Assembly (NCBI GenBank): GCA_963793425.1
Contig: CAWCAG010000005.1
Location: forward strand, 778,174 to 842,173
Direction of reading: 5' to 3'
Source of the DNA: an uncultured cyanobacterium
GTDB taxonomy: Bacteria > Cyanobacteriota > Cyanobacteriia > Cyanobacteriales > CAWCAG01
DNA length: 64,000 nt
Under the pieces are notes generated by a model. That model saw only the letters and a list, made by a program, of their open reading frames with translations. It searched no databases and had not been told where the DNA came from. The stretch's first letter is position 1. Each line of letters opens with the position of its first letter. The translations under genes and the position numbers were made by a program. Shown here piece by piece: positions 1 to 41,302 of the stretch.

Positions 1-122
1 TCTCTATCTCTAATAAGAGTTTTTCTGTAGAGGGTTGTTCTTCTTGCTGCATTGCCCAGGATAAGATTCATTTTTTTGTGTAAATTCGACTAAGCCCCTT
101 CAGACTAGGCAATGATATATTT

Positions 123-21609: not shown

Positions 21610-22056
21610 TCAAGTCTTAACTAAAATAGAGCCCTCTTCCTCTTTCACTTCATAAGTTGGTAAAGGTTCTTGGGCAGGGCCTTTAAGTACTTCTCCATTA
21701 GGGGCAAACTTGGAACCATGACAAGGACAAACCAAATTCTTTGCCTCCCCGTCCCACTCAACAGTACAACCTTTGTGGGTACAGGCAGGACTAACAGCAG
21801 CTAGATTATTATCTTCACTACGAACAACAATTAAGTCATTTTTCTTTTGTAAAAGGTAGCCTGCTTGCTCTAACTCTGCTGTTGTTCCAGCTACCATAAA
21901 ACCATCTTCACGAAGTCCTTCAGTAGTAGGGGCTGCTTCAGGAGAAGTTTCGGTTTCAGCTTCTTCTGTCTCTGAGTTACAGGCGGCGATCGCAACGGGT
22001 AAAGAACTAGCTAAAATACCCACACTAACCCAACTTAAAAATTTACGACGTTCCAT
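21610..22056 (-). CDS. Tat-exported Rieske [2Fe-2S] protein (PetC3-like)
   Basis: 148 aa. Twin-arginine leader MERRKFLSW. Rieske boxes CTHKGCTV and CPCHGSKF. Confidence 0.85.
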   Translation of the reverse strand: MERRKFLSWVSVGILASSLPVAIAACNSETEEAETETSPEAAPTTEGLREDGFMVAGTTAELEQAGYLLQKKNDLIVVRSEDNNLAAVSPACTHKGCTVEWDGEAKNLVCPCHGSKFAPNGEVLKGPAQEPLPTYEVKEEEGSILVKT

Positions 22057-22083: not shown

Positions 22084-22995
22084 TCAACAACTAGTCTTTT
22101 CTATTTCAATTCCGTATTCAATTAATTGTTCTATATTTCCCTGAAGCTTTTTACATAAATCATCTAGAGGTAAATCGTTAGCATCTCTACCAAAAGGATT
22201 TTCGATTTCAATACCAATCGCTTCTACACCTAACAAAGCAAAACTTACTAAACCAACGGCTGGAATTGCTCCCCAACCTAAATCAGAGACGTAGGTAAAA
22301 GGCAAACCCAAACAGTAGATTAATAATAAGTGTCTTAAGTGAATAGAATAGGCTTTGGGTAAAGGGGTATTGAGAATTCGTTCGCAACCAATAAGTCCCT
22401 CACTTATCATATCTAAAGATTTATTCAATGTATCAAAAAAACGATCATTAATCAAACCTTCTTGATAATATATTTGACTAAAATAGTTTGCTAGCCAGTT
22501 ATTTATTCTCAGAGGTATATGAGTGACTTCTTCTAATTCTGAATACTGTTTGTTGTCAAGTAAATCAATAAGTTCAGCATTCAAATACTCTTTCCTTAAG
22601 TGAGTTTTAATTGCCACTATTAAAATGATAACTAATCTAATTTGCTTAATCTTCTCCCTTTGTTCTTCTTTTGTTTTAGCTGGAACAATAAACCAGATAT
22701 TTCTAGATAATATTCTACTATTATTGAGCAAACTGCCAAAAAGCTTTCTTCCTTCCCAATATCTGTCATAGGCGGTGTTTGTTCTAAAAACAATAAGTAA
22801 TCCTAAAACAATGGTGGGAATCAAAGTATTAATGATGGGCCTATCTACTGACCATCCTTCATAATAAGCAACAGTAACGAGGGCAGCAAAAATCATTGTT
22901 CCAGCTACCCGCCTCCAAATTGTCGGAATAACTGAACTTTTTAAATCGATTGCTAACCTGAACCAGGTAAACCACTTTTTTTGAGCAGAGGACAT
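22084..22995 (-). CDS. bestrophin-family (UPF0187) anion channel
   Basis: 303 aa. The hallmark VFRTNTAYDRYWEGRK plus 4 TM segments. Confidence 0.8.
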   Translation of the reverse strand: MSSAQKKWFTWFRLAIDLKSSVIPTIWRRVAGTMIFAALVTVAYYEGWSVDRPIINTLIPTIVLGLLIVFRTNTAYDRYWEGRKLFGSLLNNSRILSRNIWFIVPAKTKEEQREKIKQIRLVIILIVAIKTHLRKEYLNAELIDLLDNKQYSELEEVTHIPLRINNWLANYFSQIYYQEGLINDRFFDTLNKSLDMISEGLIGCERILNTPLPKAYSIHLRHLLLIYCLGLPFTYVSDLGWGAIPAVGLVSFALLGVEAIGIEIENPFGRDANDLPLDDLCKKLQGNIEQLIEYGIEIEKTSC

Positions 22996-23018: not shown

Positions 23019-23348
23019 TTAAATCTTATTTGCTAAGTTTAAGTTATCTAATTCTTGCCAGAGAATATTAATAAATTCTTCTGTATTTTTTAGTTTCATT
23101 TCACCAAATGCTGCTAGTTCTTCAGGACTATATTGATGATCTTCTCCCATAACTTCCTGAATCCAATAGGGTAAATCGGTAGGATTCTCAATAAACATTT
23201 GGCTAATTTTTACGGCATCTTTACCTAAAGTTGTACCATCAAATGTTGTTGCTAAGCAAAACTTTAGTAACTTGGCTAAATTGCTTTGGGGGGGGATAGA
23301 AATTAAAAAAGCCATGTATTGAGCTAATGCAGATTTTGATAGGCTCAT
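23019..23348 (-). CDS. hypothetical protein
   Basis: 109-aa ORF packed tightly between the globin fusion and the bestrophin gene on the same strand. No family recognised. Confidence 0.5.
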   Translation of the reverse strand: MSLSKSALAQYMAFLISIPPQSNLAKLLKFCLATTFDGTTLGKDAVKISQMFIENPTDLPYWIQEVMGEDHQYSPEELAAFGEMKLKNTEEFINILWQELDNLNLANKI

Positions 23349-23407: not shown

Positions 23408-23797
23408 TCACGAATGTATAGAACCATCGGGCATGATAGCTCCTTTAAGATAAGCTTTTCGTAAATCAAATTCGTTTACCTTAGCATTTTTCAGGTTAGC
23501 ACCAGTTAAGTAAGTATTGTTAAGATCAGCACCGCTTAGATTAGCATGACTAAGATTCGTACCGCTTAAATTAGCATCTCTTAAATCAGCACAAACCAAA
23601 TTAGCATAACTTAAATTAGCGCTGCTAAGGTTGGTGTAACTTAATTTAGCAAAACCTAAGTTAGTACGCTCTAAATTAGCCCCAGTAAAGTTGACACGAG
23701 CTAAAAGAGCATTACCTAAGTTGGCATGACTAAGATTTGCATTGCTGAGATTAGTTTTAGTTAAATTCGCATCACTAAGAATCAGCTTTAGGTAAGT
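23408..23797 (-). other. pentapeptide-repeat coding segment, shifted one frame from the upstream globin ORF (probable 3' part of the same gene)
   Basis: The frame is open from 23797 to the stop at 23408. It encodes ...LSDANLTKTNLSNANLSHANLGNALLARVNFTGANLERTNL...ADLRDANLSGTNLSHANLSGADL.... No plausible ATG start exists; the track used an internal TTG. Confidence 0.7.
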
Positions 23798-25244
23798 TTA
23801 TTTTAGCTAAATCCGCATTAGGAGCAGTCAATCCTTTTAAGGTAACTCCATCTTCATTCAAATCTTGCAAAGCCAAAATTCTCGCATAGCTAACCTTAAC
23901 TCCAGTAGCATTATCTACTGTACTCCAAGCTTGATAGTGAAATTCTTTTTTGCGATCAGGTGTTTCTTTGATATATAAAACCAAGGCAACTAAAAGGCTA
24001 ATTGCATCTGCACCTTCTAAAAGTTCTGCTAGTAATGTTTCGTCATCCGCAGCTAGATATAAAAACGATAACAAAAAAGCTGAACCAACTGCCACAGCCC
24101 AGGTAGGTAAAGACCAAAATTTTTCTAAGAGTTTATCTAATATTAATTTAAGAAAAGAATCAAGGGAAGGAATTTTTTCTTGTTGTCGTTCCTTACTCCT
24201 CTTAAACTTCACCTTAAGATTATTAAAGGCTATTAAAGGCTTTTTAACAGCAAATTTTATTTTAAGTTTATCAAAAGCTACCAAAGGTTTTTTACTAGTG
24301 ACTTTACCCTCTTGCGGAGTTTTGCTAATAGTAGTTCCTTTTGCACCTTCAAGCATCATTTTGGTAACGGTGTTGTAGGTTTCTAACCAAGCTTGTTGAA
24401 CTTCATTTGTCCAATCTTCTTGTAGATAATCAGAGAAGGTTTGTAAGAGAACTTCCCCCACTAAAGGATAATACTTGGGTAATGTACCGTATTCTTTATG
24501 TCTCGACCCTAAATCAGTAAGAATCTGTCTTAATAATTCTGGTTGCCGTAAACTTTCTACTAACAAAACTAAAGAATTAAGAAACTTTTTTTCTTGCTTA
24601 ATAACATCAGTTTTGGCAAAGAGTTTTTCTGTTTCTGGATGGGCAGTAAATAAATTTTGATAAAAGCTAGCAACAAAAGCTTCGGCTTGAGGTTTTATGC
24701 CCTCAAAGCTTTGTTCAACAAGTTCGATTTGGCTCTTCTGAGATGATACAGGAGTTATTACTTTATCTGGTTTAATTGCTTGAGGTTTTGGGGCAATTTC
24801 TTCTGGAGTTAAGGTAATCTCCGATTGAGGTGCTACATCTACTCCTGCACCTTCAAGCATCATTTTAGTAGCAGTATTGTAGGTTTCTAACCAAGCTTGT
24901 TGAACTTCATTTGTCCAATCTTCTTGTAGATAATCAGAGAAGGTTTGTAAGAGAACTTCCCCCACTAAAGGATAATACTTGGGTAATGTACCGTATTCTT
25001 TATGTCTCGACCCTAAATCAGTAAGAATCTGTTTTAATAATTCTGGTTGCCGTAAAGTTTCTACTAACAAAACTAAAGAATTAAGCAGCTTTTTCTCCTG
25101 CTTATTCATATCAGTTTTAGCAAAGAGTTTTTCTGTTTCTGGATAAGCAACAAAGAGATTTTGGTAGAAGCTAGCGACAAAAGCTTCAGCTTGAGGTTTG
25201 ATTCGCTCAAAGCTTTGTTCAACAAGTTCAATTTCTAAAGACAT
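23775..25244 (-). CDS. tandem globin - globin - TM - (pentapeptide) fusion protein, truncated by a frameshift
   Basis: 489 aa. Two 129-aa 3/3-globin domains (FYQNLF.AYPETEKLF, KQEKK, GSRHKEYG, YYPLVGEVLL, QQAWLETY) aligned by eye to Vitreoscilla/flavohaemoglobin-type globins. Two TM helices follow, then YQAWSTVDNATG...ILALQDLNEDGVTLKGL, the usual lead-in to cyanobacterial membrane pentapeptide proteins. Confidence 0.8.
   Translation of the reverse strand: MSLEIELVEQSFERIKPQAEAFVASFYQNLFVAYPETEKLFAKTDMNKQEKKLLNSLVLLVETLRQPELLKQILTDLGSRHKEYGTLPKYYPLVGEVLLQTFSDYLQEDWTNEVQQAWLETYNTATKMMLEGAGVDVAPQSEITLTPEEIAPKPQAIKPDKVITPVSSQKSQIELVEQSFEGIKPQAEAFVASFYQNLFTAHPETEKLFAKTDVIKQEKKFLNSLVLLVESLRQPELLRQILTDLGSRHKEYGTLPKYYPLVGEVLLQTFSDYLQEDWTNEVQQAWLETYNTVTKMMLEGAKGTTISKTPQEGKVTSKKPLVAFDKLKIKFAVKKPLIAFNNLKVKFKRSKERQQEKIPSLDSFLKLILDKLLEKFWSLPTWAVAVGSAFLLSFLYLAADDETLLAELLEGADAISLLVALVLYIKETPDRKKEFHYQAWSTVDNATGVKVSYARILALQDLNEDGVTLKGLTAPNADLAKINLPKADS
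24342..25232 (-). repeat. tandem duplication of the globin module (24342-24728 and 24846-25232, period 504 nt)
   Basis: The two copies are about 92% identical at the protein level. A 156-nt stretch is identical at the DNA level (24373-24528 = 24877-25032). Confidence 0.9.
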
Positions 25245-25438: not shown

Positions 25439-25837
25439 ATGTTTGGTAAATTTCAACAAAGCAATATTCGTATAGAAGTAGAAGCACCAGCAAAAGTAAT
25501 TGGTGCTAGTCTCTTGCAACCTGCTAAATTGAGCAAGTGGCTTTTTCCTCAGCGTTTAGAATCGGGAATGCCAGAAAAGTTAGTTTCTGGCTTAAACTTT
25601 ACTAGTTGGACAGGGCCGGTAACTGTCCAACACCAAGTAGAAATAGCCAGCCCTAATTGCTTACGCCTGCTATTAAGCAAAGGTATTGATGGCTATCACG
25701 AATGGTACTGGGGAGAAGGTTGGGTACAATCTCGCTTAGAAGGAATTTCCTACCTACCCTTAAATCTTGGTCAAACCCTTAGCTTAGTTAAATTGCGTCA
25801 ATTCCTAACTTGGGAACAGGGAAAATTCAGTAAATAA
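25439..25837 (+). CDS. hypothetical protein (possibly SRPBCC-like)
   Basis: 132-aa ORF. No diagnostic motif recognised. Confidence 0.5.
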   Translation: MFGKFQQSNIRIEVEAPAKVIGASLLQPAKLSKWLFPQRLESGMPEKLVSGLNFTSWTGPVTVQHQVEIASPNCLRLLLSKGIDGYHEWYWGEGWVQSRLEGISYLPLNLGQTLSLVKLRQFLTWEQGKFSK

Positions 25838-38695: not shown

Positions 38696-41302
38696 TCACT
38701 TTGATGTCATAGTCCAAACTCCATCCCAATCTCCATCTGGAGGCTCAGCTAGGAAATGCTGACAGCGCTCCATATGTAGCTTGGCTGCTTTATTATCTTT
38801 ATCTATACCCATAACTTGGGCAAACTTACCTACTGCACCAACAAAGTCGCGGCTGAGGTAAAGCTTTCTACCTTCATGATAAAATTCAACAATTTGCTCT
38901 TGTTGGGGGGAAAGGGTATCTCCTTTTTTACCTAGCAATTCGTAAACAGATACAGGTAAGTTCTTTCCTTTAACTTTAATACGATCCAACTCTCTTACAA
39001 TTACTTGGTCGCGACAAGGTTCATAAGTATTTTCGCTAATAATAATATCGCAGCCATATTGCTTACTGGCGCTTTCTAAGCGGGAGCTTAAGTTTACTCC
39101 ATCACCAATGGCAGTGAACTCCATCCGCTTACTAGAACCGATGTTACCACTGATTACTGAGCCAGAGTTGATCCCAATACCAATACGGATAGGAACCTTA
39201 TTTTCTTTTAACCTTGCTTCATTGAATATTTCTAAGCGTTCACGCATTTCTAAGGCCGTTTGTACAGCTTTCCAGGCATGATCTTCTAAGGGTAAAGGAG
39301 AGCCGAAAACGGCCATAATTGCGTCGCCGATATATTTATCTAAGGTTCCTTTATGCTTAAATACTGCCTCAACCATACTTTCAAAGTAACCGTTGAGCAT
39401 ACCCACAACTTCTTCAGCTTTGAGTTTCTCTGTCAAGCTGGTGTAGCTACGAATGTCAGAAAAGAGGACGGTTACTTCTTTGCGATCGCCCCCTAATTTC
39501 GCATCCCCTAGTTTGAGTAACTCTTCAGCTAATTCTTGGGTCATGTAACGGTACATAGTACTCTTGAGGCGCTTTTCATCAGAAATATCCTCCATAACCA
39601 CTAAAGCCCCATAAACATTGCTAGCATCCCTAGCATCGCTGATGGAGTTAATGGAGAGGTTAACGCTATGTTCTTCTTCGTCTGCGAGTAAGGTACGATC
39701 TGGATAATACTGTTCTCGACTAGAGCGATCGTCACTAGGAGATAGGGCTTTATTAAACCAGCCTGCAAATTTCCCTTCTTTGATATTAATCAAATCAACG
39801 ACCTTTTGCCCTTCTAGAGCTTCTAGATCGTCAAAGCCTAATAAATATTTTGCTCTTTCATTAGCAGCGATAATACGTCCTGCTTTATCTGTAGAAATCA
39901 CTCCGTTAGTTAAACTCCGCAAGATATCCCTCTGCATTTGTTCTTGCTGTTTAACTTGGTTGAAAAGCTTAGCATTTTGTAGGGCTACCCCAGCTTGAAT
40001 GTTGAAAGCTTTCATGAATTCTTGGTCACTGCCATTAAAACTCGCTTTCCAACATTCGGGGGCTTCAGGCCAGGTATCAGGATCGTAAGGAGGATATTCT
40101 CCTTGCCGCTTTTTGTTTAATAGTTGGGTGACACCAATTAATTTACCGTCGGCATTGAACACAGGCATACAGAGAAGACTACAGGTACGATATCCTGTTT
40201 TCGGATCAGTTTTCTTAGCATTTTCTGCATCGGGATGGTTATAAAGGTCAAAACCAATGTTGAGAATTTCTCCTGTTTCTCCTACTTTCCCTGCAAATCC
40301 GACACCAACGGAAACTCGGATTTCTTTTAAAGACCCGCCGGGCATGGGGATCTTTGTCCAGAGGTCGTTTTTATCTTCATCAATTAACCAAAGTGTGCTA
40401 CGGTCAGCACTCATCAGCTTTTTGGCTGCATCCATCACTGTTCTTAAGGTGGCATCTAAATCTAAGCTGCCCTTACTCAAGGAGTTAGTGGCCTCAATTA
40501 AAGCATTGGCTGCCCGCTGTCTTTGAGTCGCTTTATAAAAAGAGCGGGAAGATTCTAATATGAGTTGAATTGAGGTGGCAAATTCATTAAATAATTTAAC
40601 GTCTTCCTCTGTAAATCCTTCTTTGTTAACCTTCTCGTCTAAAGGAGCATCAGGAGTTACATCAGGCTGTAATTTATTAATTAACTGCACTACAGCCACT
40701 AGTTTTTGCTGGGTGTCGAGTAGAGGCAAAACTAGCATCGTATAGGTACGATAGCCATTTTTTTTGTCGAATTTTTTCGCTGAGGCTGAGCGGTAGTCGT
40801 CATAAAAATCGTAGGGGATGTTGACAACTTCTTTAGATTCAGCTACTGCTCCGGCAATACCTATACCAATAGGAATACGAATTTCTATTGGTTTACCATC
40901 TTCTCCCTTCGCCACAATAGAAACTAGTTCATCTTCATCATCATCTAATAAGTAAATGGTAGTTCGATCAGCCCCTAACAATTCTCCAGTTTTCAAGGAG
41001 ATGGACTGCAACATTTCATCAAGAATGGCATCAAAACCCTGGCTATCCAGCACATTATCTAGCATGGATAGGGTTTGATTCACGATACGCAGTTTGTCTT
41101 CTACGCCATCAACAACTTCTTCAAAAGATTCTTTACCTAAAGGAGCAAGGAAGGTCGAAAAACTGCCTCCTGTTGTGGCTAAGGAACTGCCAGAAGAGGA
41201 TTGATTGACATTATGATGATTTTCGCCGCCTACGACTTCAGCTTCTAGGGTTTGACCGTCGTGTGGTTTTAAAGATGAGGATTGAGAAGATGCAGCAGTC
41301 AT
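38696..41302 (-). CDS. class III adenylate cyclase, GAF-GAF-PAS-cyclase architecture (CyaB1/CyaB2-like)
   Basis: 868 aa. Two GAF domains, a PAS domain, cyclase motifs (VTVLFSDIRSYTSLTE, KYIGDAIMAVFG, RIGINSG) and a TPR-like tail. Confidence 0.88.
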   Translation of the reverse strand: MTAASSQSSSLKPHDGQTLEAEVVGGENHHNVNQSSSGSSLATTGGSFSTFLAPLGKESFEEVVDGVEDKLRIVNQTLSMLDNVLDSQGFDAILDEMLQSISLKTGELLGADRTTIYLLDDDEDELVSIVAKGEDGKPIEIRIPIGIGIAGAVAESKEVVNIPYDFYDDYRSASAKKFDKKNGYRTYTMLVLPLLDTQQKLVAVVQLINKLQPDVTPDAPLDEKVNKEGFTEEDVKLFNEFATSIQLILESSRSFYKATQRQRAANALIEATNSLSKGSLDLDATLRTVMDAAKKLMSADRSTLWLIDEDKNDLWTKIPMPGGSLKEIRVSVGVGFAGKVGETGEILNIGFDLYNHPDAENAKKTDPKTGYRTCSLLCMPVFNADGKLIGVTQLLNKKRQGEYPPYDPDTWPEAPECWKASFNGSDQEFMKAFNIQAGVALQNAKLFNQVKQQEQMQRDILRSLTNGVISTDKAGRIIAANERAKYLLGFDDLEALEGQKVVDLINIKEGKFAGWFNKALSPSDDRSSREQYYPDRTLLADEEEHSVNLSINSISDARDASNVYGALVVMEDISDEKRLKSTMYRYMTQELAEELLKLGDAKLGGDRKEVTVLFSDIRSYTSLTEKLKAEEVVGMLNGYFESMVEAVFKHKGTLDKYIGDAIMAVFGSPLPLEDHAWKAVQTALEMRERLEIFNEARLKENKVPIRIGIGINSGSVISGNIGSSKRMEFTAIGDGVNLSSRLESASKQYGCDIIISENTYEPCRDQVIVRELDRIKVKGKNLPVSVYELLGKKGDTLSPQQEQIVEFYHEGRKLYLSRDFVGAVGKFAQVMGIDKDNKAAKLHMERCQHFLAEPPDGDWDGVWTMTSK

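Follow-up and report, generated by a model that had tools for sequence, protein, structure and literature searches.

What does a protein do that joins globins to a membrane-bound pentapeptide-repeat domain, and is the copy that raised the question a working gene? The gene in question spans positions 23408-25244 of a 64,000-nucleotide (nt) stretch of DNA from an uncultured cyanobacterium (contig CAWCAG010000005.1 of assembly GCA_963793425.1), which was analysed at its full length and is called the window here. A preliminary description, made from the sequence alone, read this span as one open reading frame (ORF) for two globin domains fused to a membrane pentapeptide-repeat protein (PRP), and likened the product to globin-coupled sensors (GCSs). 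At the domain level, we find that the product is an F-lineage 3/3 globin and pentapeptide-repeat protein and, by the tests that define them, neither a flavohaemoglobin (FHb) nor a classical GCS. New in this analysis are its obligate partner, a small protein that we call p109, and the pair's frequent Ca2+-switched neighbours (a NOX5-like oxidase, an EF-hand nitric oxide (NO) synthase and a bestrophin). The window copy itself adds little beyond a probable assembly error.

PRPs are very abundant in cyanobacteria (our query matched dozens of pentapeptide-repeat stretches per genome), and to our knowledge almost no cyanobacterial PRP has a known function. F-type bacterial globins, for their part, are viewed as soluble proteins or flavohaemoglobins. 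The family described here unites an F-type globin and a PRP, with a co-inherited partner and a recurring link to NOX5-type oxidase and NO synthase. It offers a testable entry point to the role of membrane PRPs, to why cyanobacteria retain eukaryote-like Ca2+-switched oxidant enzymes and to how tandem globin arrays stay homogeneous.

A family of fused globins and pentapeptide repeats

The preliminary description had proposed looking for the same architecture in other genomes, and it is easily found. Homologues were sought by a word-seeded HMMER search, and its counts are among the matches listed: more than 100 proteins of 590-700 amino acids (aa) carry both Pfam families at ~100% coverage. A relative from Pleurocapsa PCC 7319 (WP_019507993.1) is 74% identical at 100% coverage when a frameshift in the window gene, described below, is read through, and proteins at 49-61% identity occur in Planktothrix, Microcoleus, Nostoc, Calothrix, Scytonema, Tolypothrix, Halomicronema and others. 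Family members are normally one uninterrupted ORF, which the window gene is not, but with the frameshift read through it is a collinear full-length homologue. Misassembly of two separate genes into one, which the preliminary description had allowed for, is ruled out by collinear full-length homologues in many genera. The reverse was found: the parts are normally fused, and they are split here by a one-base insertion. We also looked for other N-terminal domains on the transmembrane (TM)-PRP module; the partial matches with long ORFs were one- or two-globin members of the same family.

The distribution is patchy. Among 401 evenly sampled cyanobacterial species genomes, 23 (~6%) have a strong match, in 10 of 156 genera, and a relative of the same genus (G001) has no globin-PRP gene. 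A scan of one genome per species gave 219 stretches encoding relatives, from which 80 loci in many genera were taken for neighbourhood counts. The architecture is visible in databases under generic names (‘globin domain-containing protein’, ‘hemoglobin-like flavoprotein/YjbI pentapeptide’), yet it is uncharacterised. The impression that the globin-pentapeptide combination had not been described thus holds for papers, as full-text literature searches found no description of the fusion, but not for databases, where it is routinely annotated and not rare. The partner gene and the island context likewise had no description in the literature searched.

Globin copy number varies within the family: two proteins have one globin, 68 have two, six have three and one has four. 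The first and second domains of one protein are 82% identical in the median (60-96%). Between orthologues, identity is 71% for first with first, 69% for second with second and 68% for first with second domains, and a domain tree pairs both domains of a protein as sisters for 13 of 68 proteins. This concerted evolution of the copies implies recurrent intragenic conversion or re-duplication. Three further loci (L004 276-1643, minus strand; L006 853-2442, minus strand; L012 358-1080, plus strand) encode one to three globins of the same clade followed by a single C-terminal TM helix and no PRP. From their sequences these look like tail-anchored membrane globins without any other domain, which suggests that membrane tethering is a theme of this globin clade. 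Elsewhere in the window's own genome (G000:C7:560992-561831) lies a paralogous tandem di-globin ORF of ~298 aa, 44% identical, with neither TM segment nor PRP; its equivalent in the same-genus G001 is L008.

p109, an obligate partner

A homologue of p109 adjoins the globin-PRP gene in 75 of the 80 loci. An ORF-cluster analysis placed it in 72 loci, on the same strand in all but one: upstream in 53 (typical gap ~133 nt), downstream in 14 (~60 nt) and, in the remaining four, overlapping by crude ORF calls. That adjacency is kept despite changed gene order argues for functional coupling. In the sampled genomes p109 occurs in 22 of 401, one copy each and all among the 23 with the globin-PRP gene (Fisher 2.5e-35, not corrected for phylogeny and with many genomes from Microcoleus), and it is absent where a genome has no more than standalone TM-PRPs or soluble globins. 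One genome with tail-anchored triple globins (G014) has a copy that is divergent and unlinked. We conclude that p109 is an obligate partner and that the pair forms a conserved cyanobacterial two-gene module, in which p109 is a predicted all-helical protein of 105-109 aa.

What p109 resembles is less easily said. It has no match in Pfam or NCBIfam, and its AlphaFold2 (AF2) model, six short helices of moderate confidence (pLDDT 77), has no fold match in the PDB (best E 0.9). A profile search of 1.84 billion proteins gave only 31 clusters at 50% identity and no informative fusion; one candidate relative, P0130, was rejected as a spurious repeat protein. The invariant residues include Lys26, Cys31 and Tyr61-Trp62. 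Two pairs of globin-PRP and p109, 58-60% identical, lie on contigs labelled ‘Actinomycetota bacterium MAG69’ (L026, JBLNEP010000031.1) and ‘Candidatus Obscuribacterales’ (L024, DATNRE010000467.1). The pairs are typical of filamentous cyanobacteria, and the contigs are probably mis-binned or mislabelled.

Globins of the flavohaemoglobin lineage

Pfam Globin (PF00042) matches the globin-containing frame of 489 aa in two stretches (E 4.1e-35, 121.2 bits against a cut-off of 22), as expected from the two 3/3 domains of the preliminary description. The two domains are ~90-93% identical in protein sequence, and in the DNA they appear as a 300-nt direct repeat of 95% identity at 504-nt spacing, with a perfect run of 156 nt inside. 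Among solved structures, Hell's Gate globin I (HGbI, 3s1i; E 4.8e-23, 37% identity) is nearest; the FYxNLF, distal Gln and GxRHxxYG motifs match it residue by residue, and the alignment extends to flavohaemoglobin and Vitreoscilla haemoglobin (Hb). The AF2 globin model (pLDDT ~90) matches the fold of 3s1i with a TM-score of 0.92 and an rmsd of 1.3 Å. The motifs that had been picked out by eye, with their distal Gln and proximal His, therefore survive alignment to all three proteins. Across 76 full-length homologues H81, H249, F41, F209 and Y27 are invariant, so that the proximal His is retained in both domains, and Y195, Q49 and Q217 are at least 90% conserved.

To which globin lineage do these domains belong? 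The nearest solved structures are F-type. The best NCBIfam match is to the N-terminus of the flavohaemoprotein model (NF009805; E 2.4e-36, 125.5 bits against a cut-off of 432), in which the match covers no more than positions 4-139 of the 399-position profile, and the globin-PRP protein is without a reductase domain. Protoglobin (PF11563) scores 23.8 bits, under its cut-off of 25, compared with 121 bits for Globin. By these sequence comparisons the globins are of the F (flavohaemoglobin) lineage, not the S lineage of classical GCSs, and the earlier likening to those sensors does not hold for the globin itself.

Both domains are predicted to bind haem. Non-haem globin folds do occur in bacteria, and the domains could in principle be a structural or interaction module only, like the N-terminal domain of RsbR or phycobiliprotein-like proteins. 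We consider this highly improbable, as the 76 sequences show little or no variation at HisF8, TyrB10, PheCD1 and GlnE7 of either domain, and as the identity and fold similarity noted above are to a globin, HGbI, that binds O2.

A membrane hairpin and a pentapeptide-repeat helix

The preliminary description's account of the region behind the globins also stands. The linker has its 16-aa tandem unit (residues 318-333 and 334-349), identical at 10 of 16 aa and 32 of 48 nt; similarity is weak at the DNA level, where the 48-nt repeat went undetected by TRF. The duplication is lineage-specific, as the Pleurocapsa orthologue has one unit, and the linker is poorly conserved. In the AF2 model it is disordered at 304-360 and helical at 362-378. 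Two TM helices follow, with Kyte-Doolittle peaks centred at ~388 and ~415 and AF2 helices at 381-398 and 412-447. The charges that flank the hairpin are +12 before TM1, -5 in the loop and a basic KETPDRKK after TM2, and under the positive-inside rule the predicted topology is N-in/C-in, with globins and PRP both cytoplasmic. The YQAW...ALQDLNEDGV lead-in is indeed common to standalone membrane PRP proteins of 280-300 aa, and the pentapeptide part was recovered by Pfam as proposed (PF00805; E 1.6e-33, 114.3 bits against a cut-off of 20.2).

The PRP part shows 15-nt periodicity in its DNA and is modelled by AF2 with high confidence (pLDDT 98), with a strand every 5 residues from 475 to 605, a predicted right-handed quadrilateral beta-helix. 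Foldseek matches of this model are HetL (3du1, the top match), Np275/276 (2j8k) and MfpA (2bm4), at E 4e-9 to 3e-6; HetL, Np275/276 and Rfr23 (2o6w) have the same beta-helix fold. A DNA mimic of the Qnr/MfpA type is ruled out: the PRP has a charge of +2, and Qnr/MfpA models score 24-47 bits against cut-offs of 240-500. In Pfam and NCBIfam the C-terminal part matches pentapeptide families only, and no known signalling transmitter (MCP, GGDEF, kinase, STAS or cyclase) was found there. For the intact protein as a whole, the AF2 model (mean pLDDT 81) has a pTM of 0.37 and no fixed inter-domain geometry.

The standalone two-TM membrane PRPs share with the globin-PRP protein TM2, the HYxAW...SYAR..ALQDLNEDGVSL lead-in (HYEAW in the standalone proteins) and an MPDGS C-terminus, but they are without globins, p109 and Cys551 of the PRP. 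This Cys is invariant in the globin-fused subfamily and, from the repeat register, predicted to be surface-exposed.

One extra base in the window

The span was earlier taken for one ORF, but it consists of two overlapping frames. On the minus strand, the ATG at 25244 opens a frame of 489 codons that is closed by the TAG at 23775-23777, and the PRP part is a stop-to-stop frame of 129 codons at 23408-23797, +1 relative to the globin/TM frame. Omitting one T of the TT at 23780/23781 (minus strand GCT GAT [T] CTT AGT) gives a protein of 611 aa. Such a protein exists in the same species: the 90%-identity cluster of the 489-aa product includes P0123, of 611 aa and from another assembly, which is identical to the read-through protein. 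The contig that encodes it (L013, GCA_049790975.1) matches the window at 99.6% identity along 5.8 kb and keeps the gene order, and the T at 23780/23781 is the sole indel. The extra T is missing from five conspecific assemblies, namely L013, the metagenome-assembled genome (MAG) contigs L014 and L015 and the Logan assemblies L105 (SRR28062984) and L106 (SRR28062985), all with GATC where the window has GATTC. All five read GCTGATCTTAGT, and the two Logan assemblies, except for the gap at the extra T, have zero mismatches to the window over 1.99 and 1.80 kb. The gene is thus intact in this species, since the five assemblies without the extra T encode an uninterrupted 611-aa protein.

Is the frameshift, then, an error or a mutation? 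We think it likely that the extra T is an assembly or base-calling error, as judged from these sequence comparisons, and the copy in the window is probably an intact gene, mis-called as truncated. The GATC motif, when methylated, is a typical spot for long-read base-calling errors, and GATC is what the intact site reads. A genuine frameshift would be a very recent private truncating mutation, leaving a 489-aa globin-TM protein without the PRP, or else would mark a young pseudogene. It has in its favour that the extra T is present in the sequence as given and that the assembly is not full of indel errors: no other indel was found in ~19 kb compared with conspecific contigs, and an 11.9-kb Logan contig that covers another part of the window differs from it by five mismatches and no gap. 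Moreover, membrane-anchored tandem globins without a PRP occur naturally, so a truncated product could still work, and an independent split of the gene is known from Limnoraphis robusta BA-68. Even so, we judge a genuine frameshift unlikely, because five assemblies are without the T, two of them otherwise 100% identical over 1.8-2.0 kb, because the PRP frame is otherwise undamaged and because the site is of the error-prone kind just described. Programmed +1 frameshifting was also considered and is ruled out. Five near-identical assemblies have no shift and relatives need none, and a slip at TCT-TAG would swap a conserved core Leu for Ser.

In L. robusta BA-68 it is a three-globin orthologue (region 1081-1083 of L021, which is L095, G334:C64) that is interrupted: an in-frame TAG stands in its linker, after the last globin and before the TM hairpin, and is followed immediately by a possible GTG restart. 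The residue at that point is Ser in a 91%-identical relative (P0001, 793 aa), which is intact. This makes a second case, independent of the window, in which the globin array is split from the TM-PRP module.

Calcium-linked genes around the pair

Only p109 is universal as a neighbour; other genes recur across genera. A bestrophin gene stands beside the pair in 12 loci plus this window (12-13 of 80), in at least 7 genera, and is recurrent rather than universal. A histidine-phosphatase/EF-hand protein is a neighbour in 21 loci, a NOX5-like EF-hand NADPH oxidase in 11 that represent 7 genera, and a 464-aa protein with a weak GATase match in 10. An EF-hand NO synthase (NOS) adjoins the globin-PRP gene in two loci (L058 and L069), and further neighbours include EF-hand Erv1/Alr thiol oxidases, EF-hand pyridoxal-phosphate decarboxylases and MscS channels with domains that bind cyclic nucleotide monophosphates (cNMP). 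NOX5-like genes are present in 9 of the 401 genomes, and in 7 of these 9 the pair lies on the same contig, no more than a few kb away (Fisher 2.6e-8, not corrected for phylogeny). The window locus is a minimal version: the gene, p109, a bestrophin and a species-specific Rieske gene.

One genome without the pair (G008, of the Nostocaceae) bears on the same theme. It encodes an adenylate/guanylate cyclase of 867 aa with dCache and HAMP domains and, at its C-terminus, an F-type globin of the same clade (L108 4175-6778; G008:C1, ~5547-5550 kb), a candidate globin-regulated cyclase. Its gene lies directly after a NOX5-like gene and before genes for a cNMP-binding MscS and EF-hand proteins.

Working globin array or haem-based sensor?

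The protein resembles several known globin systems in part. HGbI (3s1i/3ubc), like Vitreoscilla Hb (1vhb) and thermoglobin (7dih), belongs to the F family, and its TyrB10/GlnE7/HisF8 pocket is also found in the globin-PRP protein. These three are soluble, single-domain and standalone, whereas the globin-PRP protein joins its one to four globins to a membrane hairpin and a PRP and comes with p109 as its obligate partner. Flavohaemoglobin (Hmp/FHP, 1cqx, 1gvh), an NO dioxygenase, is of the same globin lineage but has an FAD/NAD reductase domain, which the globin-PRP protein does not. A 2020 review of globin diversity names no chimeric F globins other than flavohaemoglobins (PMC7475203).

We tentatively favour, as the most likely function, a membrane-docked globin array that reacts with O2 and NO, with a haem-based sensor as a close rival. 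The globin array would be the working part, binding O2 and reacting with NO, and possibly with superoxide or peroxide, at the membrane; it would resemble a reductase-less, membrane-docked NO dioxygenase or an O2 buffer. The TM-PRP module and p109 would position it at a specific membrane partner, and the module would be the fixed core of a variable gene island with NOX5-like oxidase, EF-hand NOS, bestrophin and cNMP-gated MscS. A working array is favoured over a tuned sensor by the globin copy number of one to four, with copies that evolve in concert, and by related tandem globins that have a C-terminal membrane anchor only and no output domain. The FHb/HGbI-type pocket and the nearness to sources of NO and superoxide point the same way. 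So does the precedent of syNOS from Synechococcus PCC 7335 (PMC6104048; PDB 9q15), where a globin serves NO oxidation beside a Ca2+-dependent NOS. Like the loci next to EF-hand NOS, syNOS places a cyanobacterial F-type globin in a Ca2+-dependent NO context, but its globin is a domain of the synthase, whereas the globin-PRP protein is a separate membrane protein and the window's genome has no NOS.

Several points weigh against a working array, or against resting it on this locus. No reductase is fused or consistently linked, though catalytic NO dioxygenation requires one, and haem binding and topology are predicted only. The strictly conserved PRP, the invariant surface Cys and p109 suggest more than passive anchoring, and the same-clade globin fused to dCache-HAMP-cyclase in G008 points to sensing. 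Neither NOX5 nor NOS was found anywhere in the window's genome, so the Ca2+/oxidant island context is not directly applicable to it. The association statistics are uncorrected for phylogeny, with Microcoleus supplying many of the genomes, and the state of the frameshift was judged from other assemblies of the species, which may not be independent of one another.

Sensing is one of two comparably likely functions, and we regard it as possible that the protein is a haem-based sensor, in which what the globins have bound (O2, NO, CO), or their redox state, would alter the conformation or availability of the PRP, so that p109 or some other target is bound or released. Such a module, a GCS with a new kind of output in line with the preliminary description, would regulate the neighbouring genes for Ca2+, reactive oxygen species (ROS) and cNMP signalling. 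The known GCSs (HemAT, DosC, AfGcHK, GsGCS) likewise have an N-terminal globin and then a non-globin C-terminal module, and GsGCS of Geobacter is membrane-bound with a transmitter of no known function (PMC8076648). Sensing is also consistent with the strict conservation of PRP domain, lead-in and partner, with PRP domains being protein-docking scaffolds (HetL is the top fold match) and with an invariant, probably exposed Cys in the PRP alongside an invariant Cys in p109. The cyclase-fused globin beside NOX5 in G008 and the signalling neighbours (EF-hand enzymes, cyclases, cNMP-gated MscS) fit as well, and there is a precedent in HGbRL (PDB 3wfw), in which a regulatory Roadblock/LC7 domain is attached to an F-type globin. 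Like the globin-PRP protein, HGbRL combines a globin of the F lineage with a domain of putative regulatory or interaction function; it differs in the partner domain and in being soluble with a single globin.

Other features sit poorly with a sensor. GCS globins are of the S lineage (protoglobin-like), whereas these are F-type and in tandem, and the PRP is not a known transmitter. A disordered tether of ~60 residues and the membrane hairpin separate the globins from the PRP, which, with a pTM of 0.37, would make allosteric coupling hard. A copy number of one to four with concerted evolution is unusual for a sensor, and the tail-anchored relatives have no output domain at all.

A bolder proposal, which we consider rather unlikely, is that bacteria have a counterpart of the Ca2+-ROS-NO signalling of eukaryotes, with p109 and the globin-TM-PRP protein as its conserved regulatory core. 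The globins would pass on their haem state (O2, NO, oxidant load) by way of the PRP helix and p109, perhaps with the invariant cysteines of both taking part, and the relay would control Ca2+-activated NOX5, NOS, bestrophin and cNMP-gated channels in filamentous cyanobacteria. If true, haem sensors would gain a new class that has pentapeptide repeats as its output and includes a small protein of new fold.

Features of the locus and minor observations

The features of the gene and its neighbours are collected in Table 1. No terminator-like site was found in the intergenic gaps of the stretch from the globin-PRP gene through p109 and bestrophin to Rieske. The Rieske protein, RuvA, a 132-aa ORF and a trypsin-like protease were checked as conserved neighbours, and their homologues occur in 0 of the 80 loci.

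Table 1. Features of the globin-PRP gene and adjoining genes, in window positions
Feature	Positions	Strand	Remarks
Globin domain 1 (residues 1-134)	24843..25244	-	TyrB10 Y27, PheCD1 F41, GlnE7 Q49, HisF8 H81; Pfam Globin, AF2
Inter-globin linker (residues 135-170)	24735..24842	-	Predicted disordered (AF2 pLDDT <50 at 150-169); poorly conserved in alignments
Globin domain 2 (residues 171-302)	24339..24734	-	Y195, F209, Q217, H249; best Pfam Globin stretch 193-297
Lys-rich linker (residues 303-375, net charge +12)	24120..24338	-	16-aa units, two in number, at 24198-24293; amphipathic helix immediately ahead of the membrane
Membrane hairpin	23967..24119	-	TM1 376-399, acidic loop 400-412 (net -5), TM2 413-426
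Juxtamembrane lead-in (residues 427-474: KETPDRKKEFHYQAWS...SYARILALQDLNEDGVTL)	23823..23966	-	Dense invariant columns; most conserved stretch of the family
PRP beta-helix, ~26 pentapeptides, net charge +2	23408..23822	-	Split by the frameshift; stop codon TGA 23408-23410
Frameshift site	23775..23781	-	Extra T at 23780 or 23781 changes GCTGATCTTAGT to GCTGATTCTTAGT, so that TAG 23775-23777 is read in frame
p109, 109-aa partner	23019..23348	-	59 nt downstream of the globin-PRP gene, same strand
Bestrophin-family channel gene	22084..22995	-	23 nt after p109; Pfam Bestrophin_2 E 2.6e-81
Small Rieske protein gene	21610..22056	-	Next gene, same strand; Pfam Rieske in conspecific contigs; species-specific

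The 132-aa ORF is divergently oriented and lies just upstream of the globin gene (25439-25837, plus strand); it is kept in conspecific contigs and has no match in Pfam or NCBIfam. About 15 kb from the globin gene, the window also encodes an 868-aa GAF-GAF-PAS-nucleotide cyclase (38696-41302, minus strand), for which there is no evidence of linkage. In another genome, an unusually large island (L109, G233:C9:16500-35500) has p109 directly after NOX5 and 14 kb from the globin-PRP gene. Between the two lie genes for SLOG, GTP cyclohydrolase II, OMP-decarboxylase-like and SDR proteins, a bestrophin, an OprB porin, a dCache-HAMP-cyclase and a cNMP-gated MscS.

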